DNA of 32,000 bases from positions 810,001 through 842,000 of the forward strand of contig NC_009776.1 in assembly GCF_000017945.1 (NCBI RefSeq). Direction: 5' to 3'. Position 1 is the first letter of the stretch. Each line of letters starts with the position of its first letter. This DNA comes from Ignicoccus hospitalis KIN4/I. GTDB taxonomy: Archaea > Thermoproteota > Thermoprotei_A > Sulfolobales > Ignicoccaceae. Below are positions 2,869-31,441 of the stretch, in pieces. The notes beneath the pieces are model-generated. The model made no database searches and was not told the DNA's origin. It saw nothing but the letters and a program-made list of their open reading frames with translations. The position numbers and the translations under genes were made by a program.

Positions 2869-4206
2869 TTGGAGAGCTTGGAGAGGCTTTACGACGCGCT
2901 GGAGCGCGACGAGCTCAACGCTTTCATAACCTTGCGCCCCCGCGAGGAAGTCCTCAGAGAGGCGAGGTCCCTGCTGGAGAGGGGCCTGAGGCCAAAGCCC
3001 GTCACGATCAAGGACAACATAAGCACGAAGGGAATTAGGACCACCGCGGGCTCCTTAATGCTGAAGGATTACGTACCTCCCTTCGACGCGACCGTAATTA
3101 AGAGGTTAAAGGAGAGAGGCTACGTAATAGTAGGAAAGACCAACATGGACGAGTTCGGAATGGGCAGCACCGGTGAGAACAGCGCCTTCGGGCCCACCAA
3201 GAACCCCTTGGACCCGGCCAAAGTGCCGGGGGGCTCTTCCTCGGGGGCCGGCGCGGCCGCTAGGAGGTACTCCCTCCCGGGGCTGGGGAGCGACACGGGG
3301 GGCTCAGTAAGGGCTCCGGCGGCTTGGTGCTCCGCCTTCGGCTTGAAGCCCACCTACGGGGCGGTCTCGCGTTACGGGCTTATCCCCTACGCGGACTCGC
3401 TCGAGCAGATCTCCCCCATAGGCCCCACCGTCAAGAGCGTCGAGGAGCTCTTGGACGTTATAGCCGGTTACGACGAGATGGACGGGACGACCGTGAAACG
3501 GGAGCTGCGTGTGAAGGGCTGTAGCGAGAAGGGGGTGGAGGGCCTAAAGCTCTTCGTCCCGTCTAACGCTCTGGAATACGTCGATAACGACGTCAAAGCT
3601 GAGTTCAACGCCGCCTTGAGGAAGTTGAGCTCCGAGGGGGCAGAAGTAGAGGAGGGCCAGCTGCCCGAGCTCGAGGCCGCCTTGCCGGCGTACTACACAA
3701 TAGCTATGGCGGAGGCGTCCAGCAACCTGTCCCGGTACGACGGCATAAGGTACGGCCTAAGGGACGAAGACCTCCCGCCCATAACTGAGAACTTCTACGA
3801 GTACGTCTCGGAGGTACGCGGGAAGTACTTCGGCTGGGAGGTGAAGAGGAGGATAGTCGCCGGCGCGACGGTGCTCTCCGCCGGTTACAGCGAGGAGCTG
3901 TACTTGAAGGCTTTGAAGGCTAGGAGGAAGATAAGCGAACGCATATACGAGATAACCGAGGAAAGGCTCATAGTTACCCCCACCATGCCGGTCAAGCCGC
4001 CTAGCCTGGCCTCGGCCAGGTCGCCCAAGGAGCTCTTCGCAATGGACGTCTTAACGGTCTTCGCCAACCTCGCGGGCGTGCCCGCGGGGAGCGCGCCGGT
4101 GGGCGAGGGAGTGGGCCTCCAAGTGGTGGGACCGAGGTGGGGCGAGTGCGAGGTGTTGAGGGTTATGGGGACCTTCGAGAGGAAGGTTGACGCGCCGTGG
4201 CTTTAG
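2869..4206 (+). CDS. gatA: Glutamyl-/aspartyl-tRNA amidotransferase subunit A (amidase-signature family)
   Basis: 445 aa. Amidase signature GGSSSGAGAA, an upstream 'KDNISTKGIRTTAGS' block containing the catalytic Lys, and a GatA-like N-terminus (LNAFITL). No gatB or gatC is adjacent, so a generic amidase cannot be fully excluded. Confidence 0.8.
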   Translation: MESLERLYDALERDELNAFITLRPREEVLREARSLLERGLRPKPVTIKDNISTKGIRTTAGSLMLKDYVPPFDATVIKRLKERGYVIVGKTNMDEFGMGSTGENSAFGPTKNPLDPAKVPGGSSSGAGAAARRYSLPGLGSDTGGSVRAPAAWCSAFGLKPTYGAVSRYGLIPYADSLEQISPIGPTVKSVEELLDVIAGYDEMDGTTVKRELRVKGCSEKGVEGLKLFVPSNALEYVDNDVKAEFNAALRKLSSEGAEVEEGQLPELEAALPAYYTIAMAEASSNLSRYDGIRYGLRDEDLPPITENFYEYVSEVRGKYFGWEVKRRIVAGATVLSAGYSEELYLKALKARRKISERIYEITEERLIVTPTMPVKPPSLASARSPKELFAMDVLTVFANLAGVPAGSAPVGEGVGLQVVGPRWGECEVLRVMGTFERKVDAPWL

Positions 4207-4808: not shown

Positions 4809-5492
4809 TTGGAGGGCTTCGCCTACGGGAAAAAGACGTTATTAATTTCCTTACTCAGCACCACGGCGTTCGCAGCGGTCCTATCCTTTTTCCCCCAGTA
4901 CTACGTCTACTTAATACTGGCATACTTCGTAATAATGCCAATTATAATGGTAAAGTTTATGTCAAAGCAGATCAAGGAGATGAGGGCCCCGGGGAGCGGC
5001 AAGACCCTAATGGAGGAGGACGCCAAGGAGCTCTTCGACAAGGACCCCCAAGGAGACATAATACTGAAGGCGCAGATGAAGCAGAACGCGCTAGGGATGG
5101 TACCATTCCTAATATTAATAGCTCTAGCTTTCACTTTGTGGCCAGCCATACTGCATTTGGAAGAGCCTTGGCTCCGCTTTATAGCAATATTCGCTTACTT
5201 CGAGAGCTACACCCTGCTGAACTACTTCTTGAACAAGTATAACTTAAAGAATATGAAGAAGGTGCCGAGACCCGTGTATCAATACAAGGTAACGGATAAG
5301 GGTATCCAAATCAAGCCCTTCGGCGGCATAACCTTCCCGCTCAAAGGGTATTCGATAAAGTTGGTCAAGGAGAGCAGCGCAGTTGACTTGGTGTCTAAGG
5401 AGGACGGCAAGCCCAGCTACCGGCTCTACGCTAAGGAGCCCGAAAGGCTTTACGACGTCTTGCGGAGGCTAGGCGGGGTTGAAGAAGCTTAA
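4809..5492 (+). CDS. Membrane protein: 2 N-terminal and 2 central TM helices, with a soluble C-terminal domain
   Basis: Hydrophobic segments TLLISLLSTTAFAAVLSFF / YYVYLILAYFVIMPIIMV / MVPFLILIALAFTLWPAIL / FIAIFAYFESYTLLNYF. These are followed by a beta-rich soluble tail (YQYKVTDKGIQIKPFGGITFPLKGYSIKLV...). It overlaps nep1 by 14 nt. Confidence 0.6.
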   Translation: MEGFAYGKKTLLISLLSTTAFAAVLSFFPQYYVYLILAYFVIMPIIMVKFMSKQIKEMRAPGSGKTLMEEDAKELFDKDPQGDIILKAQMKQNALGMVPFLILIALAFTLWPAILHLEEPWLRFIAIFAYFESYTLLNYFLNKYNLKNMKKVPRPVYQYKVTDKGIQIKPFGGITFPLKGYSIKLVKESSAVDLVSKEDGKPSYRLYAKEPERLYDVLRRLGGVEEA

Positions 5493-6108
5493 GGTCATAC
5501 TGCTCGAGTCCCCCCTAGAGCTGGCGCCTCCCTCTTGGCCCTACGGGCCGCTGATAGACAAGAGGTACCACTACCACAAGCTCTCCGCCTTTACGAGGAA
5601 GTGGAAGAGGGGGAGGCCGGACATAGTCCACACGACGCTGCTGGTCTTACTGGACTCGCTGTTAAACGCCAACGGCAGCTTGGAAGTGTACGTACATACC
5701 TTAGACGGCAAGGTTTACTACGTGAGCCCCGAGGAGAGGCTCCCCAAGCACTACGACGCCTTCAAGCAGATAATGGCCCAGCTCCTCCAGCGAGGCAAGG
5801 TCCCTCCCGAGGGGGAGCCGCTCATGTGGCTCGCGTACGAGAGCCTCTCGGACTTCGTGAAGGAACACGGAAAAATCATCCTGCTGTGGGAAAAGGGAGA
5901 GCCGAGGAGGTTCAAGGAAATAGCCTCAGAAGCCTTGGAGACCGGGGCCCCCGTGGGCATAGGCGCCTTCCCGAGGGGAGATTTCGAGAAGAGTACCTTG
6001 AGGAAGTCCGCTAAGAGGTACTCCGTGTTCGGCGGGAGGCCGTTGAAGGCTTGGACCGTAGCCTATAAGTTGGTGTGCGCAGCCGAAGAGCTCCTAGGGC
6101 TGGAATAA
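5479..6108 (+). CDS. nep1: Ribosomal RNA small-subunit pseudouridine methyltransferase Nep1/Emg1 (SPOUT family)
   Basis: 209 aa. Characteristic 'KRGRPDIVHTTLLVLLDSLLN' block and the overall Nep1 layout (LKVILLESPLEL... N-terminus, C-terminal 'SVFGGRPLKAWTV'). Confidence 0.8.
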   Translation: MKKLKVILLESPLELAPPSWPYGPLIDKRYHYHKLSAFTRKWKRGRPDIVHTTLLVLLDSLLNANGSLEVYVHTLDGKVYYVSPEERLPKHYDAFKQIMAQLLQRGKVPPEGEPLMWLAYESLSDFVKEHGKIILLWEKGEPRRFKEIASEALETGAPVGIGAFPRGDFEKSTLRKSAKRYSVFGGRPLKAWTVAYKLVCAAEELLGLE

Positions 6109-7963: not shown

Positions 7964-7967
7964 CGAG

Positions 7968-9017
7968 GTGAAGGAGGCGCTCGAGTGGTACGAAGAGATG
8001 CACCGGAAGTGCGACTTCCGCGGGAAGTGGGTGATTAGGGAGGAGGCGGAGACCGACCCCAAGTACGGCAAGGAGCCGTGGAAGAGGGACGTGAAGGAGC
8101 TGGTGGAGCTCGGCGTGGTGAACTTGGACAAGCCGCCCGGCCCGACCTCCCACGAGGTGGTGGCGTGGATAAAGAGGATGTTCGGGTTGGAGAGGGCCGG
8201 CCACGGGGGGACCCTCGACCCCAAGGTAACCGGCGTCCTGCCGGTGGCCCTAGCGGAGGCAACTAAGGTCATCCACTACGTGATGCTCTCTGGCAAAGAG
8301 TACGTGATGGTGATACAGTTCCACGACGCCGTTAAGGAAGAGGAGGTCATCGAGAACTTGAAGTACTTGGTGGGGGAGATATACCAAAGGCCCCCTCTGA
8401 GGAGCAGCGTTAAGAGGCAGTTGAGAACCAAGAAGGTGTATTACATACACGTCTTGGAGTTCTGGCCCGAGAGGAGGATGGCCTTAGTGAGGGTCGGCTC
8501 GGAGAGCGGAACTTACATGAGAAAGCTCGCCCACGACTTGGGCTTGCTCGTGGGAACGGGGGCCCACATGAGGGAGCTCAGGAGGACCCGGAGCGGCCCC
8601 TTCCACGAGGATTGGAACTTGGTTCGGATGCAAGACTTAAGCGAGGCTAAATTCTTATACGACAACTACGGCGACGACAGCCTCTTGAAGAAGTATATAA
8701 TGCCTTGTGAAGTAGCCACTTGTCATATGCCAAAGATAATGATCAAGGACGGCGCTGTGGACGCGGTGGCCCACGGCGCCAACGTCTCGATAAGGGGCGT
8801 TGCGGCGCTCACCGACAACATGAAGAAGGGGGACGTAGTGGCGGTGGTTAGCCTAAAGGGGGAGCTAGTGGCAATAGCACAAGCTCTGGTCTCTTCGCAA
8901 GAGGCCTTAAAAATGGAGAAGGGTTGGGTGGCGAAGACCAAGAGAGTGATAATGAAGCCCGGAACGTACCCGGACGTTTGGAGGAAGAAGAAGGCCTCAC
9001 AGCAAGAAGGGGGCTAA
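7968..9017 (+). CDS. cbf5: H/ACA RNP pseudouridine synthase Cbf5 (TruB family with a C-terminal PUA domain)
   Basis: TruB catalytic motif 'GHGGTLDPKVTGVLPV' with the catalytic Asp, the archaeal Cbf5 N-terminus (TDPKYG..P..R), and a PUA-like C-terminal region. Confidence 0.9.
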   Translation: MKEALEWYEEMHRKCDFRGKWVIREEAETDPKYGKEPWKRDVKELVELGVVNLDKPPGPTSHEVVAWIKRMFGLERAGHGGTLDPKVTGVLPVALAEATKVIHYVMLSGKEYVMVIQFHDAVKEEEVIENLKYLVGEIYQRPPLRSSVKRQLRTKKVYYIHVLEFWPERRMALVRVGSESGTYMRKLAHDLGLLVGTGAHMRELRRTRSGPFHEDWNLVRMQDLSEAKFLYDNYGDDSLLKKYIMPCEVATCHMPKIMIKDGAVDAVAHGANVSIRGVAALTDNMKKGDVVAVVSLKGELVAIAQALVSSQEALKMEKGWVAKTKRVIMKPGTYPDVWRKKKASQQEGG

Positions 9018-19641: not shown

Positions 19642-20199
19642 TCAAGTTTTAGCGGCTACCACGAGGCCCAGGGAGGTCGGCACTACCAAGTACTTGACCT
19701 TGAGCTCTTTGAGCTTTTCGAAGAACGTCTGAGGAGGTGGCGGAAAGATCGCGTTGTGGAACAACATTACTCCTCCCTTACCCAACTTCTCATAGAGCAA
19801 TTCCAACACGTCTGGATACTGCTCCTTATCCACGTCTACGAACGCGAAGGCCACGGGCTCTTCGAACCCTTTTAAGAAATCCAAGGCGTCCCCGTGCACG
19901 GCCTCGAAACCGGCCTTCTCAGCCAAGCCCTTTAACTCTTCGAAGAATCTTGCCTCCCTCTCCACAGCTATGAGCCTCTTCCCGAAGGCCTTGGCTGCTT
20001 GGAGTATCCACAAAGCCGAGAAGCCTATTCCGGCGCCCAAGTCCAGCGCCACTCCCTCCGCGTTAGCCAGGGCGGCGAACGAGGTCCCTTGCAACACGTA
20101 AGCGTCCTCCAACGGTATGTGGGGTATTCCCAACCTCCGGGACCTCTCCATTACGTACCTATAGAGCTCTTCAAACCCCGTCATCTTGTGATTACCCAT
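19642..20199 (-). CDS. Class I SAM-dependent O-methyltransferase (family 3, YrrM/caffeoyl-CoA-OMT-like)
   Basis: SAM motif I 'VALDLGAGIGFS'. 'FAFVDVDKEQY...GGVMLFHNA' matches the family-3 'D.D K..Y ... DN' pattern. The second ATG at 20184 fits the TATA spacing better than ATG 20199. Confidence 0.7.
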   Translation of the reverse strand: MGNHKMTGFEELYRYVMERSRRLGIPHIPLEDAYVLQGTSFAALANAEGVALDLGAGIGFSALWILQAAKAFGKRLIAVEREARFFEELKGLAEKAGFEAVHGDALDFLKGFEEPVAFAFVDVDKEQYPDVLELLYEKLGKGGVMLFHNAIFPPPPQTFFEKLKELKVKYLVVPTSLGLVVAAKT

Positions 20200-20235: not shown

Positions 20236-22773
20236 TTGCAACAGAAGTTCTTCGTTACCGCAGCTTTCCCCTACGCCCTCCCGCTCGACGTGGACGAGCT
20301 CGTAACTAGGGTGCGCTCCTACCTAGTAGCCGACGTGTACGCGAGGTACCACGAGGCTAGGGGGAGGAGGGTCCTATTTCCCATGGCTTTCCACTACAGC
20401 GGCACGCCCCTCGTTTCCTTCTACGAGAGGGTGAAGTCCCGCTCCCCGGAGGCGCTGAAGTTATTAAAGGAACTGGGCGTCCCCGAGGACGTAAAGAGCC
20501 CTAAGGAACTTGGGGACTTCATGTCCAGAAAGCTGAAGGAGCTCTTCGATTCGTTGAGGTTGAGGATAGATTGGGAGCACTCGTTCACCACGGAGGATCC
20601 CGGATTTAAGTCCTTTGTAAAGTGGATATACTTAAAACTGAAGGAAAAGGGCTTAGTGGTCAAGGGCACTTACCCGGTGCCGTGGGACCCGGTAGAAGAG
20701 GTCCCGGTGAGCTCCCACGACACTGAAGGCTTCAAGCAGATAAAGGTGGGATCCTTCTTCTTGTTAATGTTCGAGTTGAGCCCGGGCTTGTACTTGCCGG
20801 CGGCCGCCCGGCCGGAGACCTCATTCGGTATAACTAACATATGGATCAACCCCAAGGCAGAGTACAAGATAGTGGAGGCCGGCGGCAAGAGGATGATTAT
20901 GTCGTCCAAGGCAGCTTTTAAGATTAGGTTCCAGTTGGACGAGGTGTTTGAAGTAGGCAAGGTAGATCCTGAGGAGATCCTCGGCAAGAGGGCCGTCAAC
21001 CCCATAACTGGGGAGAGCGTGCCCGTGCTGCCCTCAAGCTCGGTGGACCCGGAGAGGGGAAGCGGCGTCGTGGCCTCGAAGCCTGCGCACGACGTGAACG
21101 ACTACCGCGAGGTGCAGAAGCTCTTGAGCAAACCCTTCGTGCTCGAGAGCTTCGACGTTGACCCGAAGGAGCTAGAGCCGAAGGCCGTGATAGAGCTGCC
21201 CGGGTGTGAGGTCCCAGCGGCTTGCTTCGAGGACAACAGGGAGCTCGTGCTCGCGGAAAGGAGCAAGGGCAAGCTCAAACCCGAAGCGGTCTTAAAGGCG
21301 TTGAAGGGCTCGGAGGACCAGTTCCTCAAGGGCTTGCTCTTGACCGTGTTGACCGAGCGACCGGTCGCGGAGGTCTCGGAAGTAATAAAGAGAGCTGCAA
21401 CCGTCGGGGGAGTTGCTTTAGAGTTTTACGACGTATTGAACGGACCGATAAGGTCTAGGTTCGGTAACGAAGTAGTGGTGAAGGTCCTCAAGGACCAGTG
21501 GTTCTTGAACTACGACGACGAGAAGTGGAAGAAGAAGGCGTTAGAGGTTCTTAGCCTGATGGAGGTGGTTCCCAAAGAAGTCTCGAGGTCCTTAGTAACG
21601 GTCATAGAAAGCCTCAAGAAGAGGGCGTTCGCTCTGGCACGGGGCTTGGGCACCCCGTTGCCGTGGGACGAGAACTTAGTAATAGACAGCCTCAGCGACT
21701 CCACCTTGTATTACTTGTTCTACCTATTTGCAGACGTCCTCAAGGACAAAGAAGTGAAACCCGAGGCGTGGGACTACTTGATACTGGGGGAGGGCAAGGC
21801 GGAAGACTTGAAGTACTTGAGGAAGAGGTTCTTGGAGTGGATGCCCCTAGACATGAGGGTTGTCCACGAGGAGCTCGTGAGCAACCACGTCGCCTACATG
21901 CTGTTCCACCACGCGGCCATCTTCGGAACCTCCAACGTTCCGAGGAAGTTGTTGGTAACTGGAGAGGTGGAGGGCGTCAGCGTAAACCCGTTTAAGGAGG
22001 ACCCGCAAGCCTTGAGGTTGTACTTGCTGACCGCGGCGAAGCCCACCTCGCCTCTGAAGTTCTCGGAAAAGGACCTCCGCGAGGTTCAAAAGAGGATAGA
22101 GGAGATACTCAAGGAGTGGCCCTCCGGGGACAGGGAGGCCGGGGAGCTCGAGGAGTGGCTGGAGTCGGCCTTGGCGCTGAGGGTTCAAAGGGCCGAGGCG
22201 GCGCTGGAGCAAGGGGACGTTAGGGAGGCGGCCCTACAAGCCCTGGGCTTCTTGAAGGACTTGAGGAGGTACTACCAGAGGTTGGAGGACAAGGGCTTGC
22301 CGCCCTCCAAGGAAGTGAGGAGGCTGCTGAGGGAGTGGGGCTCGCTGTTGTACCCGTTCGCGCCCTCGCTGGCGGAGGCCCTAGGAGGGGTCCCCCGGTG
22401 GCCTTCCTTGGAGCGGAACTTGGAGGTCGAGGCTAAAGAAGCATACTTCGATATGTTACTAAATGAAATTAAAAAGGTGAAGTCGGACAAAGTCCTAGTA
22501 GAGGTGGCCCCTAGGGAGGCGACTGAGGCGCTCAGGGAAGTGGTGGAGAGCGTGGAGGAGGGGGTCTGGGAAGAGCTGGAGGACGTCCCCCGGCAGCTGT
22601 TGGAGAGGGCCTTGAAGTTGAGCGAGGAGTGGAGGGAGTTGTTGTACTACATAAAGGACGAATACGAGATGGCGAGCTCCCTAAAGGAGGAGTTGGAGAG
22701 GAGGACCGGCAAGGAGGTCCACGTAAAGGTGGGAGACGCACAGCCCTTGTCCCCCAAGGTGAGGGGCCTTTGA
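20236..22773 (+). CDS. Leucyl-tRNA synthetase paralog with degenerate catalytic signatures (probable pseudo-synthetase)
   Basis: 845 aa with an archaeal LeuRS-like layout throughout ('FPY...', 'VLFPMAFHYSGTP', a CP1-type 'ARPETSFGITN', 'DSLSDSTLYY'). At the HIGH position it reads 'LPLDVDEL' (20266-20298). At the KMSKS position it reads 'GEVEGVSVNPF' (21961-21993). Confidence 0.8.
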   Translation: MQQKFFVTAAFPYALPLDVDELVTRVRSYLVADVYARYHEARGRRVLFPMAFHYSGTPLVSFYERVKSRSPEALKLLKELGVPEDVKSPKELGDFMSRKLKELFDSLRLRIDWEHSFTTEDPGFKSFVKWIYLKLKEKGLVVKGTYPVPWDPVEEVPVSSHDTEGFKQIKVGSFFLLMFELSPGLYLPAAARPETSFGITNIWINPKAEYKIVEAGGKRMIMSSKAAFKIRFQLDEVFEVGKVDPEEILGKRAVNPITGESVPVLPSSSVDPERGSGVVASKPAHDVNDYREVQKLLSKPFVLESFDVDPKELEPKAVIELPGCEVPAACFEDNRELVLAERSKGKLKPEAVLKALKGSEDQFLKGLLLTVLTERPVAEVSEVIKRAATVGGVALEFYDVLNGPIRSRFGNEVVVKVLKDQWFLNYDDEKWKKKALEVLSLMEVVPKEVSRSLVTVIESLKKRAFALARGLGTPLPWDENLVIDSLSDSTLYYLFYLFADVLKDKEVKPEAWDYLILGEGKAEDLKYLRKRFLEWMPLDMRVVHEELVSNHVAYMLFHHAAIFGTSNVPRKLLVTGEVEGVSVNPFKEDPQALRLYLLTAAKPTSPLKFSEKDLREVQKRIEEILKEWPSGDREAGELEEWLESALALRVQRAEAALEQGDVREAALQALGFLKDLRRYYQRLEDKGLPPSKEVRRLLREWGSLLYPFAPSLAEALGGVPRWPSLERNLEVEAKEAYFDMLLNEIKKVKSDKVLVEVAPREATEALREVVESVEEGVWEELEDVPRQLLERALKLSEEWRELLYYIKDEYEMASSLKEELERRTGKEVHVKVGDAQPLSPKVRGL

Positions 22774-23144
22774 GTCGCGAGGCGCTCGCGAAGAGGATGG
22801 CTAGGGCCTTCAAGGCCCTCGGCTTCTTCATATTTGAGGCTGACGAGTTGCCGGACGTCAAGGAGGTCCTCGAGGAGGCGAAGCTCCACGAGACTTTGAG
22901 GGTGGTGAAGCTTGGGGACGTAGACCTAAGAATTAAAAACTTGGAATTCGTCACATCGTACTACATGGTTACTTTGGACTTGGAGAGCTGCTTGAACTCT
23001 TGCAAGGACGACGAGTGCTTGAAGGCGTGTGCGGAGGAGAAGAAGGAAGCCGTGGCGAGGGCCTTGTTAGAGGTGAAGGGGCAGAAGCCCCAAGACCTCT
23101 CCTCCCTATTAAAGAGGCTGCGGGAAGGCTCGAGGGGGCAGTGA
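22770..23144 (+). CDS. Hypothetical small protein (about 124 aa) with a C-x3-C-x4-C-x3-C motif
   Basis: TTG 22770 overlaps the LeuRS-like TGA (TTGA); ATG 22797 is an alternative start. The motif 'CLNSCKDDECLKAC' lies at 22989-23030. The track's longer version (from 22629) lies inside the upstream gene. Confidence 0.5.
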   Translation: MSREALAKRMARAFKALGFFIFEADELPDVKEVLEEAKLHETLRVVKLGDVDLRIKNLEFVTSYYMVTLDLESCLNSCKDDECLKACAEEKKEAVARALLEVKGQKPQDLSSLLKRLREGSRGQ

Positions 23145-24043
23145 GGCATTTGCCCGAAGTAGCTGAGGCGCGAGGGTTAACCTTCATCAAGGGTCCGGGT
23201 TTGGACCACGTAATAGAGGAGAAGGGAATCAAGAGGATAGTGGTCTTGGACCCCTATTTCGGTGACATATACGGGGACTACCTCTTCGCTGGGTACGAGG
23301 TGGTCGAGGAGTTCCCCAAGGCTACCTTGCCGGACGTAGTGGGCTTCCACACGGCGGCGGTGCTCCTCAGCAAGAAGCCCGCGGTGGTGGTCTGCGGCTT
23401 CGACCCCTTGAGGTGTGCCGTCGCCCTCGCGGCTTACTTGATAAAGGAAGAGAAGGTAAGTGTGGAGGAAGCGGTGGAGGAGGCGGAGGAGAGGCTCTCC
23501 TCCCTCTACGGCGCGGCGAGGGTGCCACGGGTTCCCAAGAGGGGGCTAGAGGCCTACGCCCGCTTGGCCAGCCTCTTCGGGGACTACTTAGACGCGATTA
23601 TGGCTTTGGGCCTTAACTATGAGTTCGGTAAAGGGGGCCTCCATTGGGGAGAGGCAGTGACTTGGGCGAACTCAATGGAGTACGACGACCCTCTCTTCCT
23701 AGCGACGGCGCTTCACTTCTTGGCCGAGGGCCACGGGAAGAGGGATGAGGTGTTCCAGAGGAGGCTAGAGGTGGTGAGGCGCGAGGCCTTGGAGGAGATG
23801 TTGGGCGAGGAGGGCCTGGAAGCCTTAGAGCTCGTGAGGGAGTTCGCTGAGGGCAAGTTGAGGGAGCTCGAGTTCGTGGAGGCCCTCCAGCCGGGCGAGG
23901 GGTACGTGCGCGACGTGGAGAGGCGCGGGGACGAGGTGGTGGTTAGGTGCATCGGCTGTGAGGCCGTTAAAGGGTTGAACGAACTCCTCCCCCTAGAGAG
24001 GGCCGGCGTGAGGAAGGTCTCCTTCGAGCGGGTGACCGTTTGA
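23141..24043 (+). CDS. Hypothetical protein (300 aa). The N-terminal half resembles a cysteine-phosphatase (PTP/DSP) fold with an atypical C-x5-R loop. The C-terminal half is helical and unassigned.
   Basis: GTG 23141 overlaps the upstream TGA (GTGA), and the gene's own TGA overlaps the TTG of the next gene. 'LPD...(26 aa)...VVVCGFDPLRCAVALAAYLIKEEKVSVEEAVEEAE' mirrors the DSP pattern 'D...VHCxxGxxRS..v..AYLm...s..eA'. However, His and the central Gly are missing and an Asp lies within the loop. Confidence 0.55.
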   Translation: MRHLPEVAEARGLTFIKGPGLDHVIEEKGIKRIVVLDPYFGDIYGDYLFAGYEVVEEFPKATLPDVVGFHTAAVLLSKKPAVVVCGFDPLRCAVALAAYLIKEEKVSVEEAVEEAEERLSSLYGAARVPRVPKRGLEAYARLASLFGDYLDAIMALGLNYEFGKGGLHWGEAVTWANSMEYDDPLFLATALHFLAEGHGKRDEVFQRRLEVVRREALEEMLGEEGLEALELVREFAEGKLRELEFVEALQPGEGYVRDVERRGDEVVVRCIGCEAVKGLNELLPLERAGVRKVSFERVTV

Positions 24044-24942
24044 GGCTGTTAAAGAAGATCGCTAGGGAAGTCTTGGGGGACGAGGAGGTCTGGAGCAGGA
24101 TAGACGTAGTAGGCGACATAGCCCTAATACATAGGAAGTTCAACTATCCAATAGACAAATTGAAGGTCTTGGGGCAAGCCCTCTTAGAGAGGATGCCGGG
24201 AATAAAGTCGGTTTGGGCGGTAGAGCCCGGGACCAAGCCGCCCTACGTCTTGAGGGACTTGATCCACTTGGCAGGCGAGAGGAGGACCGAGACCGTTTAC
24301 AGAGAGCACGGCTGCGAGTACTTAGTGGACTTGAGCAAGGTCTTCTTGGTCCCTCGCCTCTCCGGCGAACACTTGCGCGTGGCGAAGCTCGTAGAGCCTT
24401 GGGAAGTGGTGTTCAACATGTTCGCCGGGGCGGGACTCTTTTCGATTCTCATAGCCAAAATGAAGGGCGCGAAGGTATATTCAGTGGACATCAACGAGTA
24501 CGCATACAAATACATGGTTGAAAACATAAGGAGGAACAAGGTTGAGGGACTCGTGGTGCCCATACTAGGCGACGCGGCCTCGGTGAGCTTGTGGCTGAGG
24601 GGAGGGGTCGACAGAGTCCTCATGCCCCTCCCGGAGCTGGTCCCCGATTATTTGGACTTCGCCTTGCTGGCCTTAAGGTACCCCGGGAAGCTTCACATGT
24701 ACTTACACGTATTAGTTAAGAGAGGGGAAAGGCCTAGGGACGCTGCGAAGAGGGTCGGGGTCCCGCTGGTGGCCAAGAGGTGCTCCTCCTTCGAAGTGGA
24801 GCGCGTCAGGCTGGTCAGAACCGTGGGGCCGAGGGTAGCACAAGTGGTCTTGGACCTCACGTTAGAGAAGTGCGAGCCCTCCCCGAGGCTGGGCAAGCCT
24901 TACAACCCTAAGGAGTTCTTAGAGACCGCTCCCCTCAATTAG
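24040..24942 (+). CDS. trm5: Trm5-family (Met-10+) tRNA methyltransferase, probably tRNA (guanine37-N1)-methyltransferase
   Basis: 'IDVVGDIALI', 'FLVPRLSGEHLRVA' (Trm5-type PRL..E..R), SAM motif 'VFNMFAGAGLFSILIA' and 'DRVLMPLPE' (equivalent of the NLP loop). The Taw2/Taw22 subfamilies cannot be excluded by eye. Confidence 0.8.
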   Translation: MRLLKKIAREVLGDEEVWSRIDVVGDIALIHRKFNYPIDKLKVLGQALLERMPGIKSVWAVEPGTKPPYVLRDLIHLAGERRTETVYREHGCEYLVDLSKVFLVPRLSGEHLRVAKLVEPWEVVFNMFAGAGLFSILIAKMKGAKVYSVDINEYAYKYMVENIRRNKVEGLVVPILGDAASVSLWLRGGVDRVLMPLPELVPDYLDFALLALRYPGKLHMYLHVLVKRGERPRDAAKRVGVPLVAKRCSSFEVERVRLVRTVGPRVAQVVLDLTLEKCEPSPRLGKPYNPKEFLETAPLN

Positions 24943-24972
24943 CTCCTCTCACTGGAGCCCCGGGCCCGCGCG

Positions 24973-26757
24973 TTGAAGTTTTCGGACGTCGTAGACGCCC
25001 TCGAGAGGCTGGAGAGGACTACCTCGAGGACACAGATAGTCGCTATATTAACGAACTTATTTAAGAAAGTCATTGAAGAGAACAAAGATATAATAGATAA
25101 GGTGGTTTACTTCATCCAAGGCAAGCTCTGGCCCGACTGGTACGGCTACCCGGAGATAGGGATCGGCGAGAAGGGGATAATAAAGGCCATCTCCTTGGCC
25201 GCTAACGTTAAGGAGAAGGAAGTGGAAGGCTTGTATAAGCAGCTGGGGGACTTGGGCTTAGTCGCCGAAAGGTTGATGGCGAAGGCCCCAAAGGGGGGCC
25301 TGATGATGTTTGTAAAGAAGAAGGAAGAGTTGACGTTCGAGAAGGTATACGAGACTTTGAAGAGGATAGCCTTCATGCAAGGGGAGGGGAGCCGGGACCT
25401 CAAGATAAAGACGTTGGCGGGCCTGCTCAAGGAGGCCTCGCCCAAGGAGGCGAAGTACATCGTTAGGTTCGTCCAAGGGAAGTTGCGCTTGGGCGTGGGT
25501 GACGCTTCCATAATAGAGGCTTTGGCCCACGTGGCGGGAACGACCAAGGACGTCGTCGAAAGGGCCTACAACTTGAGGGCGGACCTGGGAGCGGTGGCTA
25601 AGATAGCGGTCACCGAGGGCCCCGAAGCGCTGAAGAGGGTAAGGCCGAAGCCCGGCGTCCCGGTCCGCCCAATGTTGGCGGAGAGGCTCAACGACCCTAA
25701 GGAGATATTGAAGAAGCTCGGTGGCAAGGGGCTGGCCGAGTACAAGTACGACGGTGAGAGGGCTCAGATCCACTTGCTCCCGGACGGAAAGGTGGTGATA
25801 TTCTCGAGGAGGTTGGAGAACATAACTAGGTCCTATCCGGACGTCGTCCAGTACGCCAAGTCCGGCTTGAAGGCAAAGGAGGCAATAGTAGAGGGAGAGA
25901 TAATTGCGGTCAACCCCGAGACCGGGGAGCCAAGGCCATTCCAAGAGTTGATGAGGCGGAGGAGGAAGCACGACGTAGCCCTGGCGATGAGTGAGATACC
26001 GGTCAACGTGAAGTTGTTTGACATTATATACGTGGACGGCGAGGACATGACTAACAAGCCCCTCCCCCTCAGGAGGAAGAGGTTGGAAGAAGTAGTTGAG
26101 GAGAGCGAGGAGTTCTCCCTTTCCACGGCAAAGTTAGTAAGTACGCCCGAGGAGCTCGAGCAGTTCTTCCACCAGTCCATTTCCGAGGGACACGAGGGCT
26201 TGGTGGTGAAGGCCGTCCACGACAAGAGCGTCTACCAAGCTGGGGCCAGAGGGTGGCTCTGGATAAAGTACAAGAAAGACTACAAGAGCGAAATGGTAGA
26301 GCCGGTCGACTTGGTAGTTGTAGGGGCCTTCTACGGCAGGGGTAGGAGGGGAGGCACCTTCGGGGCCTTGTTAGTCGCCGGCTACGACGAGAAGAGGGAC
26401 GCCTTTGCGACGGTCTGCAAGGTAGGCTCGGGGTTCAGCGACGAGGAGCTGGCGAGGCTCCCGGAGCTCTTGAAGCCGTACATAAGCGAGACCAAGCCTC
26501 CTAGGGTCATAAGCAACGTTAAGCCCGACGTGTGGGTGAGGCCGGCGCTGGTGGCGGAGATCATCGGGGCGGAAATAACGCTGAGTCCTATTCACACTTG
26601 CGCTAAGGACGAGGTCAGCGCGGGGAGCGGGCTGGCGATACGCTTCCCGCGTTTCATACGCTGGAGGCCCGACAAGGGGCCGGAGGACGCCACCACGTGT
26701 GGAGAGATAGTGGAGATGTACAAAAGCAGGCTCAAGAAGGTCGAGGAACCTACGTGA
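24973..26757 (+). CDS. lig: ATP-dependent DNA ligase
   Basis: 594 aa. Adenylation motif I '[12 protein letters not shown]' (KxDG), 'EGLVVK', 'WLKYKKDY'-type motif V (seen as WIKYKKDY) and an OB-fold C-terminus. TTG start. Confidence 0.95.
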
Positions 26758-30688: not shown

Positions 30689-31441
30689 TTGTTAGCCCTA
30701 ATCACCGACTACGGTTACAAGGACGTCTACGCGGGAATACTCAAGATAGTTGCAAAGGAAGTATGTAAAGACGCTGAGATAATAGACGTCACTCACGGAA
30801 TAGAGCCCTTCAACGTGTTAGAAGGCGCGGTGGCTACGCTGGTAGCCGCTAAACACTTGCCCGAGGGTTCCACCTTGGTCGCCGTGGTAGACCCCGGGGT
30901 GGGGAGCGAGAGGGAAGCGGTGGCAGCGCGCGTAGGGGGGAGGTTCCTCATAGGCCCCAACAACGGCCTCCTGTGGCTGGCGGCGCAGGAGCTGGGCTTG
31001 GAGAAGGCGGTTAGGATAGAGAAGAAGCTAGTAAGGTATTCTTCTCACACCTTCCACGGTCGCGACCTCTTCGTCCCGGCGGGGGCGTTCTTGGAGTGCG
31101 GCGGGGGCTTGGAGGAGCTCGGCCCCGAGACCTCTCTGACCCCCCTCCCCTTCGAGCTCTACGCCAAGCTAGGGGACAAGAGGGTGGAGACCGTAGCAGT
31201 TTACGTAGACCGTTTCGGCAACGTCATGACTTGGGCGAAAGAAGCCCCCTTCGAGCTCGGAGAGCTTGTAAGAGTGAACGGGAGGCCAGCCCGCTTCGTC
31301 AGGACGTTTTCTGAGGTCAAGCCGGGGGAGCTGGCAGTTTACATAAACAGCTTCGGCTACCTAGAGGTGGCCCAGTACATGGGCGACGCGTCGAAGAGCT
31401 TAGGCTTGAGGCCCGGAGACCCGGTGGTGGTGGAGGCTTGA
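30689..31441 (+). CDS. S-adenosyl-L-methionine hydrolase (adenosine-forming; DUF62, fluorinase/chlorinase-like family)
   Basis: 'LITDYGYKDVYAGILKIV', 'VAVVDPGVGSER', 'IGPNNGLL', 'FHGRDLFVPAGA' and 'VYVDRFGN' are family hallmarks. Confidence 0.8.
   Translation: MLALITDYGYKDVYAGILKIVAKEVCKDAEIIDVTHGIEPFNVLEGAVATLVAAKHLPEGSTLVAVVDPGVGSEREAVAARVGGRFLIGPNNGLLWLAAQELGLEKAVRIEKKLVRYSSHTFHGRDLFVPAGAFLECGGGLEELGPETSLTPLPFELYAKLGDKRVETVAVYVDRFGNVMTWAKEAPFELGELVRVNGRPARFVRTFSEVKPGELAVYINSFGYLEVAQYMGDASKSLGLRPGDPVVVEA

Follow-up and report, generated by a model that had tools for sequence, protein, structure and literature searches.

The question raised by this locus is whether four tightly packed genes of Ignicoccus hospitalis KIN4/I, lying one behind another at 20236-24942 of a 32,000-nucleotide stretch of the chromosome (NC_009776.1, positions 810,001 to 842,000; this whole stretch is referred to below as the window), encode the parts of a single tRNA-handling complex or are neighbours with separate functions. 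A first-pass annotation of the window had described the string as four consecutive open reading frames (ORFs) on the forward strand, encoding a leucyl-tRNA synthetase (LeuRS)-shaped protein without aminoacylation signatures (gene 1), a protein with a cysteine motif (gene 2), a C-x5-R protein (gene 3) and a Trm5-family tRNA methyltransferase (gene 4), and had proposed that the first of these serves as a tRNA(Leu)-recognition scaffold for a complex. All four ORFs are present. The product of gene 3 is a 100% match to Igni_0940 of I. hospitalis KIN4/I in the protein collection searched, and that of gene 1 is 100% identical to the NCBI entry "class I tRNA ligase family protein [Ignicoccus hospitalis]"; the G+C content of the window is ~57%. 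The findings presented here suggest that the four genes probably form a young, lineage-specific string in a highly compacted genome, with separate functions for its members and probable co-transcription, and not a conserved module.

The distribution of the gene order carries most of this argument. The order gene 1-gene 2-gene 3-gene 4 is kept in four genomes of the hospitalis subclade only, including loci L002, L003 and L019/20, and there the flanks are syntenic over 17 kb, with genes for aconitase, a flavoprotein, an AAA ATPase, lumazine synthase and a methyltransferase upstream and, in the two loci whose contigs reach that far (L002 and L003), DNA ligase and aminotransferase genes downstream. 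Elsewhere the gene downstream of the LeuRS paralog is a different one: a DUF357/cytidylyltransferase (FAD-synthase-like) gene in L004/L018, where the paralog is 57% identical, an opposite-strand rubrerythrin-like gene in I. pacificus (L015) and in locus L017 of a metagenome-assembled genome (MAG), and an opposite-strand ferredoxin/hydrogenase gene in I. islandicus (L016). No gene 2, gene 3 or Trm5 gene was found within 7 kb of the paralog in I. pacificus, I. islandicus, L017 or L018/L004, and the gene 3 homologues in L001, L010-14 and L022 are unlinked to LeuRS or Trm5. Conservation of gene order in related genomes, which a functional module would have led one to expect, is thus seen only where the whole region is syntenic, and I. 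pacificus, I. islandicus and three MAG loci differ. The first-pass annotation had itself named a lack of such conservation as an outcome that would refute its hypothesis.

Gene 1 does retain the architecture of a LeuRS, with the catalytic core, the CP1 editing domain, an anticodon-binding-type helical domain and the C-terminal domain. It covers positions 31-925 of the 946 in the LeuRS profile, carries the Pfam domains tRNA-synt_1, tRNA-synt_1_2 and Anticodon_1, and can be aligned to the LeuRS of P. horikoshii (1WKB/1WZ2) over residues 2-784 (listed as 2-716 for 1WKB). Its scores fall under both curated cut-offs, at 593.7 bits against 677 for PRK12300 and 452.1 against 648.5 for TIGR00395. The loss of the aminoacylation signatures that had been noticed at first sight is borne out by the alignment to 1WKB, by one that set 11 paralogs against 8 canonical enzymes and by a regular-expression check of 12 paralog clusters, HIGH and KMSKS both being gone. 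The canonical PYP..HLGH is replaced by PYALPLDVDELVTR in 11/11 aligned paralogs, the HIGH region having gained a 3-residue insertion, and the canonical GKKMSKSLRN by a shorter, unrelated segment of the EGVSVNPF type in every paralog. Because both motifs are lost, leucine activation by gene 1 would be predicted to be impossible, and a protein incapable of activation would have to work by binding tRNA-Leu, leucine or a partner.

The paralogs form a clade of 12 clusters that are 50-100% identical to gene 1, the next matches in the database search being canonical LeuRS at ≤38%. Its members come from I. hospitalis, I. pacificus (IPA_06975), I. islandicus (EYM_02315) and close MAGs, to which the clade is restricted, and in a rough neighbour-joining (NJ) tree they make up one long branch apart from the Sulfolobales sequences. 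A scan of genome contigs with gene 1 returned one true orthologue and five canonical LeuRS. Since a canonical LeuRS shares the chromosome with the paralog in both I. pacificus (1035 aa) and I. islandicus (1030 aa), the clade represents a true paralog maintained beside a working enzyme. It has evolved faster than that enzyme, with 57% identity compared to 70% for the canonical protein in the same species pair, and is still full length. No published description of an Ignicoccus LeuRS paralog was found in a literature search. In I. pacificus and I. islandicus the canonical LeuRS has a peculiarity of its own, a ~60-residue insertion shortly after the HIGH region (alignment columns ~118-180) that is absent from the other crenarchaeal LeuRS aligned and from the paralogs, and it is this insertion that makes the canonical Ignicoccus enzymes unusually long.

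Duplicated LeuRS are known from other archaea. The LeuRS-I of Sulfolobaceae (Weitzel et al. 2020) is described in a review (PMC9437257) as inactive in aminoacylation while still binding tRNA-Leu and forming leucyl-adenylate; its CP1 is disrupted, its C-terminal domain divergent and acidic, and the authors of the review suggest a tRNA-dependent function outside translation. The Ignicoccus paralog is similar in being a second, non-aminoacylating LeuRS beside a functional one in a hyperthermophilic crenarchaeon. It differs in having lost both HIGH and KMSKS, so that adenylate formation is not expected from its sequence, in its full-length CP1 and shortened C-terminal part, and in its restriction to Ignicoccus and close MAGs on a separate NJ branch. 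By sequence, the Ignicoccus paralogs are further degenerated than Sulfolobus LeuRS-I, and their origin is likely to have been independent of it. NmLeuRS2 of Natrialba magadii and other haloarchaeal duplicates are likewise duplicated LeuRS, with strongly reduced aminoacylation and retained affinity for tRNA-Leu (PMC4005665, PMC3436685, as summarised in the review). According to that summary the haloarchaeal copy still weakly aminoacylates, so that its synthetic site must be functional, whereas in the Ignicoccus copy neither of the two signature motifs is intact.

At the other end of the string, the assignment of gene 4 to the Trm5 family holds (PF02475, 126.7 bits, cut-off 28), whereas the link to m1G37 of tRNA-Leu, on which the proposed connection with gene 1 had depended, is not supported, the hallmarks of the protein being those of aTrm5a/Taw21. 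Among NCBIfam models Taw21 scores best with 206 bits, a cut-off of 400 not being reached, followed by Trm5b (160) and Taw22 (105). The D1 domain is absent: the match begins at position 81 of the Trm5b profile and at residues 88-99 of the solved structures, with only ~15-20 residues of gene 4 preceding the Trm5b match. In the NPPY-type motif VLMPLPE is aligned with IIMNLPK and VIMNLPK, placing Pro in the first position and not the Asn/Asp of Trm5b/c. In motif A LSGEHLRV is aligned with LGGERARI, with His at the position of MJ0883 Arg186; this gives GEH, with Gly and not the Tyr of "YEH", and the wording of PMC5113207 is ambiguous as to which subfamily carries the motif A His. The same study describes aTrm5a proteins as having no D1 and Pro/Thr in the NPPY-type motif, Desulfurococcales as generally carrying aTrm5a plus aTrm5c, and Sulfolobus aTrm5a (Taw21) as converting imG-14 to imG2 in tRNA-Phe while making no m1G (PMC5113207). 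Gene 4 is therefore like aTrm5a/Taw21 (S. solfataricus SSO2439) in its TRM5/TYW2 domain, its lack of D1, its motif Pro and its motif A His, and unlike it in pairwise score, with 139 bits to the solved Trm5b structures against 93 to P. abyssi Trm5a. The substrate predicted from these features is most likely tRNA-Phe, in the wyosine pathway, and a bifunctional protein with Taw22-like activity is possible. Because gene 4 most likely acts on tRNA-Phe, the tRNA-Leu link between the two ends of the string is removed.

Profile and fold searches, which had been suggested for the two middle genes, placed gene 3 in the protein tyrosine/dual-specificity phosphatase (PTP/DSP) fold and gave no family match for gene 2. 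Gene 3 is built from an N-terminal PTP/DSP-fold domain, a helical domain of ~150 residues and a small C-terminal beta domain. An AlphaFold2 (AF2) model made with 25 aligned sequences reached pLDDT 95.7 and pTM 0.92, compared to pLDDT 48.7 for the single sequence. Foldseek searches with it against PDB and BFVD returned proteins of the DUSP14, SsoPTP and Tk-PTP type with probability ~1.0 and TM(target) of 0.5-0.7 over the N-terminal ~150 residues; the top 50 in PDB are of DSP/PTP fold except for the exopolyphosphatase 8JGR, which is poorly superposed (root-mean-square deviation 19.8 A), and the BFVD matches are overwhelmingly DSP/PTPs, with a few weak outliers low in the list. No sequence match to any phosphatase family was obtained in Pfam or NCBIfam (both at E<=0.1) or in PDB. 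A word-indexed search found 6 relatives and an exhaustive hidden Markov model search of 1.84 billion representatives found 24, those of known taxonomy belonging to Ignicoccus and Hyperthermus; a metagenome scan with a second alignment (A2) yielded a single 1.2-kb fragment.

The description of gene 3 as a C-x5-R protein is accurate for I. hospitalis and points to the right fold, that of the Cys-phosphatases, with the reservation that the Arg is not conserved in the family. C85 is invariant (25/25), as are G86 and C92, and in the AF2 model C85 sits between strand 81-84 and helix 89-104, at what would be the position of the catalytic Cys in the P-loop. Arg91 occurs in ~7/25 members, I. hospitalis among them, and is otherwise G, N, A, S, P, Q, V, F, L, K or E. 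Invariant or near-invariant positions are C85, G86, C92, D65, D37, Y160, G163, R208, C270 and C273, with P89 in most members; the C-terminal Cys pair, near-invariant as well, is CIGC here and C-x~10-C in most homologues. As judged from the alignment, the signature of the family is CGxxPxxC plus two distal cysteines and not a canonical phosphate-binding loop. SsoPTP, Tk-PTP and the eukaryotic atypical DUSPs share with it the N-terminal fold, a Cys that closes the central strand and leads into a helix, and a near-invariant upstream Asp, and differ in that the gene 3 family has C-G-x2-P-x2-C and extra helical and beta domains with a Cys pair.

Outside the hospitalis subclade the homologues of gene 3 are stand-alone genes with opposite-strand neighbours in all five contexts available. 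Three of the five are divergent from a molybdopterin oxidoreductase gene (1230-1267 aa, the oxidoreductases being 72-77% identical among loci), and in three of the five the homologue faces, in convergent orientation, the gene for a conserved ~330-aa Cys-rich protein. These neighbours and the four conserved cysteines together hint at a redox or Fe-S role for gene 3, not one in tRNA metabolism; the Mo-oxidoreductase neighbourhood is only a lead, since the loci may be related genomes. The Cys-rich neighbour itself has 324-337 aa and ferredoxin-like CxxCxxCxxxCP motifs, and polyferredoxin genes lie near the molybdopterin oxidoreductase.

In gene 2, the cysteine motif proved to be an invariant C-x3-C-x4-C-x3-C in the orthologue alignment, which begins at TTG 22770. 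Substitutions among orthologues follow the order of codon positions 3>1>2, a coding pattern that indicates purifying selection. The gene is known from 3 database clusters and loci L002, L003 and L019/20 only, all of the hospitalis subclade, and lies between gene 1 and gene 3 wherever it is found. Its product, which had no match in Pfam, NCBIfam, PDB sequences or PADLOC, may form a Cys4 metal site or a disulfide-stapled hairpin. It showed no similarity to any LeuRS, for which reason the idea of a detached LeuRS domain was rejected, and a reading as part of a defence system was rejected after the PADLOC search. The protein turned up in JGI- and ENA-derived clusters only and not on the 1.3-Mb NCBI chromosome record to which genes 1 and 3 belong; although clearly a conserved coding gene, gene 2 may have been left out of the annotation of that GenBank record or annotated differently there.

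The close spacing of the genes was the original reason for regarding them as a unit, each junction having been described as a 4-nt stop/start overlap. Two of these, the TTGA at 22770-22773 and at 24040-24043, stand. The GTGA at 23141-23144 is present and probably coincidental, given that comparison with the DNA of three relatives places the homologous start of gene 3 at TTG 23150 (TTTGCCC here, TTTGCCC or TTTGACC in the relatives), the start that also yields the 297-aa Igni_0940 as stored in the protein collection; the true gene 2/gene 3 junction is then a 5-nt gap. Relatives have a TTGA overlap or else a gap of 1 or 13 nt between genes 1 and 2, and a gap of 15-19 nt between genes 2 and 3. The sole junction conserved across all four genomes is the TTGA of gene 3 and gene 4, which lies within GGGTGACC(G/C)TTTGA.

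The reported TATA box was found as ATATAAA, 24 nt before the TTG of gene 1, and L002/L003 have the TATA-like CTATAAC/CTATATC at the equivalent site. That no A/T-rich element occurs at an internal junction is not quite accurate for I. hospitalis, which has TATTAAA ~30-40 nt before the gene 3 start; the equivalents in relatives are TACTAAA and TTCTTAA, which are not TATA-like, and the conservation seen at this patch is explained by the underlying sequence coding for LLK(R/K)L. The Shine-Dalgarno (SD)-like motifs AGGTGA, GAGGG and GGTGA precede the three internal starts, and the AGGTG before gene 2 is also found in L002/L003. In crenarchaea the first gene of a transcript is usually leaderless and the internal genes are SD-led. 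A TATA-like box ~24 nt from the first cistron and SD-like motifs at the internal ones fit this pattern, and co-transcription of the four genes from the promoter-like element before gene 1 is therefore plausible.

It does not follow that the overlaps are a signature of stoichiometric co-expression, as had been claimed. With ATG, GTG and TTG all permitted as starts, every TGA that follows an A, G or T looks like an overlap, so that ~3/4 of TGA stops will give an xTGA "overlap" by chance, and the same window joins unrelated genes by 4-nt overlaps or gaps of ≤4 nt, as between the ZnuA-like and NUDIX genes (2346-2349) and between those for SAM hydroxide adenosyltransferase (SAM-HAT) and a cytidylyltransferase (31438-31441). 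Further tight junctions of unrelated genes are those of a DUF2208 membrane protein with Nep1 (5479-5492) and of DUF2192 with Cbf5 (7964-7967). Since unrelated genes of the window overlap in like manner, the overlaps are no indicator of a stoichiometric complex. The next gene on this strand, 30 nt beyond gene 4, encodes an ATP-dependent DNA ligase; the gap has no TATA-like patch, and the nearest A/T-rich patch is ~255 nt upstream, within gene 4. This gene may, from its position, be co-transcribed with the four, and if a single promoter and tight spacing were the sole criteria it would count as a fifth operon member. No entries for Igni_0938-0942 were found in the proteomics supplement of PMC3149612, and a literature search found no published mention of these locus tags.

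In the light of these findings, a stoichiometric four-protein complex, in which the pseudo-LeuRS presents tRNA-Leu to the methyltransferase and genes 2 and 3 are accessory or repair subunits, is unlikely. It would account for the tight spacing behind one upstream TATA-like box, for the order kept in four hospitalis-subclade genomes and for the retention of the CP1 and C-terminal domains by the pseudo-LeuRS, and there is a precedent in the inactive Sulfolobus LeuRS-I, which is reported to bind tRNA-Leu still (PMC9437257). The paralog clade, however, predates the cluster: I. pacificus, I. islandicus and three MAG loci have it among unrelated genes. The gene 3 family goes back even further, and in no other context is it linked to LeuRS or Trm5; the hallmarks of gene 4 point to imG-14 of tRNA-Phe; and overlaps are commonplace among unrelated genes here. 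Moreover, RNA and translation genes account for ~5 of roughly 32 genes in the window, and this richness in translation and RNA-modification genes raises the chance expectation of two neighbouring tRNA/RNA genes, so that their proximity is unsurprising. The tRNA(Leu)-recognition scaffold that the first-pass annotation had put forward is accordingly set aside, the paralog having different neighbours elsewhere, gene 3 occurring alone and gene 4 being aTrm5a-like. A variant of this idea, that a pseudo-LeuRS scaffold binding tRNA-Leu or leucine recruited genes 2, 3 and 4 into a co-translated tRNA-processing or quality-control complex within the hospitalis subclade, is a long shot; if true, it would represent a young, still-assembling synthetase-derived module resting on a pseudo-LeuRS that is maintained in all three named Ignicoccus species.

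Smaller functional units fare no better. Genes 3 and 4 could form a pair acting on a shared tRNA, or in a redox- or phosphate-dependent wyosine step, with genes 1 and 2 as bystanders. Theirs is the only junction conserved in all four genomes, and RNA 5'-end-acting PTP-fold enzymes exist, with 1YN9 and 2C46 among the weaker fold matches. We regard this pairing as quite improbable: the conserved junction also encodes the gene 3 C-terminus ERVT(V/L), so that protein constraint explains its conservation, no Trm5 lies beside the gene 3 homologues in the five other contexts, and the fold matches favour RNA phosphatases no more than protein DSPs. That gene 2 arose in the hospitalis subclade to serve the pseudo-LeuRS as a small accessory Cys4 subunit, these two alone being functionally linked, is to be doubted to much the same degree. 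Gene 2 lies directly downstream of gene 1 in 4/4 genomes, behind an SD-like AGGTG and with a stop/start overlap or a gap of ≤13 nt, and it is under purifying selection. Its distribution, on the other hand, equals that of the whole syntenic block, and the adjacency carries no independent information for that reason; the paralogs of other Ignicoccus species manage without it, and it resembles no part of any LeuRS. The last alternative would make gene 1 a trans-acting editing factor, its CP1 hydrolysing mischarged tRNA-Leu despite the dead synthetic site. The CP1 core of I. hospitalis does keep RPET..G.TN and GSGVV..PAH...D, and with them the Asp that corresponds to D332 of P. horikoshii (GSGVVASKPAHDVNDY). 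Against this, in all paralogs the first Thr of the T-rich loop (AAARPETSFGITN) is lost through a one-residue deletion, and in those of the I. islandicus type the Asp has become Ser and the last Thr Leu at the editing site. Because editing-site residues vary across the paralogs, editing is unlikely to be a function conserved in the clade; trans-editing was dropped as the conserved role of gene 1, and as an account of the I. hospitalis protein it is highly unlikely.

Several observations nonetheless weigh against regarding the string as separate genes. The order is strictly kept within the subclade at 57-68% protein identity, the TTGA overlap of genes 3 and 4 and its GGGTGACC context are identical in all four genomes, and gene 2 has been seen only with gene 1 on one side and gene 3 on the other. 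Two of the four act on tRNA, and an AlaX-like gene adjoins gene 4 in two relatives. On these grounds a functional association confined to the clade keeps a small probability, whether it involves the whole set, genes 3 and 4 or genes 1 and 2. In addition, the canonical LeuRS that should complement gene 1 in I. hospitalis is presumed from necessity and from the two sister species.

If the four genes are, as we favour, a co-transcribed string of separate functions, transcription would start from the TATA-like box before gene 1 and give a leaderless or near-leaderless first cistron, and the internal cistrons would be translated by means of the SD-like GGTGA/GAGGG motifs and the close stop/start spacing. 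Gene 1 would provide an Ignicoccus-specific pseudo-synthetase with Rossmann-fold remnants and CP1, helical and C-terminal domains that presumably binds something, and gene 2 a young Cys4 protein. Gene 3 would be a member of a small crenarchaeal Cys-phosphatase-fold family whose older company is that of Mo-oxidoreductase and Fe-S genes, and gene 4 would methylate imG-14 on C7, at position 37 of tRNA-Phe. The four would have come together in the hospitalis subclade and would have stayed so along with the synteny of the whole region. Coordinates of the features discussed are collected in Table 1.

Table 1. Features of the four-gene string, its surroundings and related loci (window positions unless a locus is named).
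Feature	Position	Strand	Basis
TATA-like box ATATAAA	20209..20215	+	sequence read; promoter role inferred
Gene 1, pseudo-LeuRS, 845 aa, TTG start	20236..22773	+	LeuRS profiles, 1WKB alignment
Gene 1 HIGH-equivalent segment PYALPLDVDELVTRVRSY	20269..20322	+	alignments, regular expression
Gene 1 CP1 editing-domain core, T-rich loop AAARPETSFGITN plus GSGVVASKPAHDVNDY	20800..21105	+	alignments
Gene 1 KMSKS-equivalent segment VTGEVEGVSVNPFKED	21955..22002	+	alignments, regular expression
SD-like AGGTGA, 8 nt 5' of gene 2 start	22757..22762	+	function inferred
Gene 2, 124 aa, TTG start	22770..23144	+	aligned orthologues, codon-position pattern
Gene 2 C-x3-C-x4-C-x3-C motif CLNSCKDDECLKAC	22989..23030	+	orthologue alignment
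TATTAAA patch, gene 2 3' end; possible weak internal promoter	23107..23113	+	
Gene 3, Igni_0940, 297 aa from TTG 23150 (300 aa from GTG 23141)	23150..24043	+	
Gene 3 P-loop-like segment VVVCGFDPLRC	23384..23416	+	family alignment, AF2 model
Gene 3 C-terminal Cys pair CIGC	23948..23959	+	family alignment
SD-like GGTGA, 5 nt 5' of gene 4 TTG	24031..24035	+	
Gene 4, aTrm5a/Taw21-like tRNA methyltransferase, 300 aa, TTG start	24040..24942	+	PF02475, NCBIfam
Gene 4 motif A PRLSGEHLRV	24352..24381	+	alignment to 2YX1 (MJ0883), 5YAC
Gene 4 NPPY/NLP-equivalent motif VLMPLPE	24616..24636	+	alignment (IIMNLPK against VLMPLPE)
ATP-dependent DNA ligase, possible fifth cistron	24973..26757	+	Pfam domains in L002/L003 orthologues
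AlaX-like gene in relatives	L002 9775-10497; L003 9807-10529	-	
Gene 3 homologue contexts	L001 4113-9985; L012 2027-6879; L022 987-6916; L010 6001-7915		

The AlaX-like gene of L002 and L003 encodes 240 aa with tRNA-synt_2c and tRNA_SAD domains, is of the trans-editing type and lies on the minus strand between the Trm5a gene and the DNA ligase. In I. hospitalis there is no such gene at 24943-24972, only 30 nt separating gene 4 from the ligase, and in L019/L020 the Trm5a gene is followed by a short same-strand fragment at the contig end with no AlaX-like gene; the AlaX-like gene has thus been lost or has moved. On the other side of the string, only 36 nt separate gene 1 from the start of a divergent methyltransferase gene (19642-20199, minus strand). 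The ATATAAA is 10 nt from the start codon of the latter and therefore too close to serve it, so that the methyltransferase gene either has its promoter within gene 1 or truly starts further in. Elsewhere the window carries genes for a GatA-like amidase (2869-4206), Nep1/EMG1 (5479-6108) and Cbf5 with TruB_N and PUA domains (7968-9017), and neither tRNA genes nor Rfam RNAs were found in it.

A four-protein tRNA-Leu machine would, if true, be a new kind of synthetase-derived complex, and comparative genomics gives no backing for it. For genome scanning the locus holds a caution, in that overlaps and the absence of internal promoters are insufficient evidence of a functional complex in very compact archaeal genomes. 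The novelties that it does offer, of moderate interest, are the pseudo-LeuRS clade and the Cys-rich phosphatase-fold family. The latter is a tiny crenarchaeal family of Cys-phosphatase fold in which the conserved chemistry is that of four cysteines and not of C-x5-R. The former is an apparently undescribed clade of LeuRS paralogs, devoid of HIGH and KMSKS and full length beside the canonical enzyme throughout Ignicoccus, and may serve as a test case for the roles of pseudo-synthetases.

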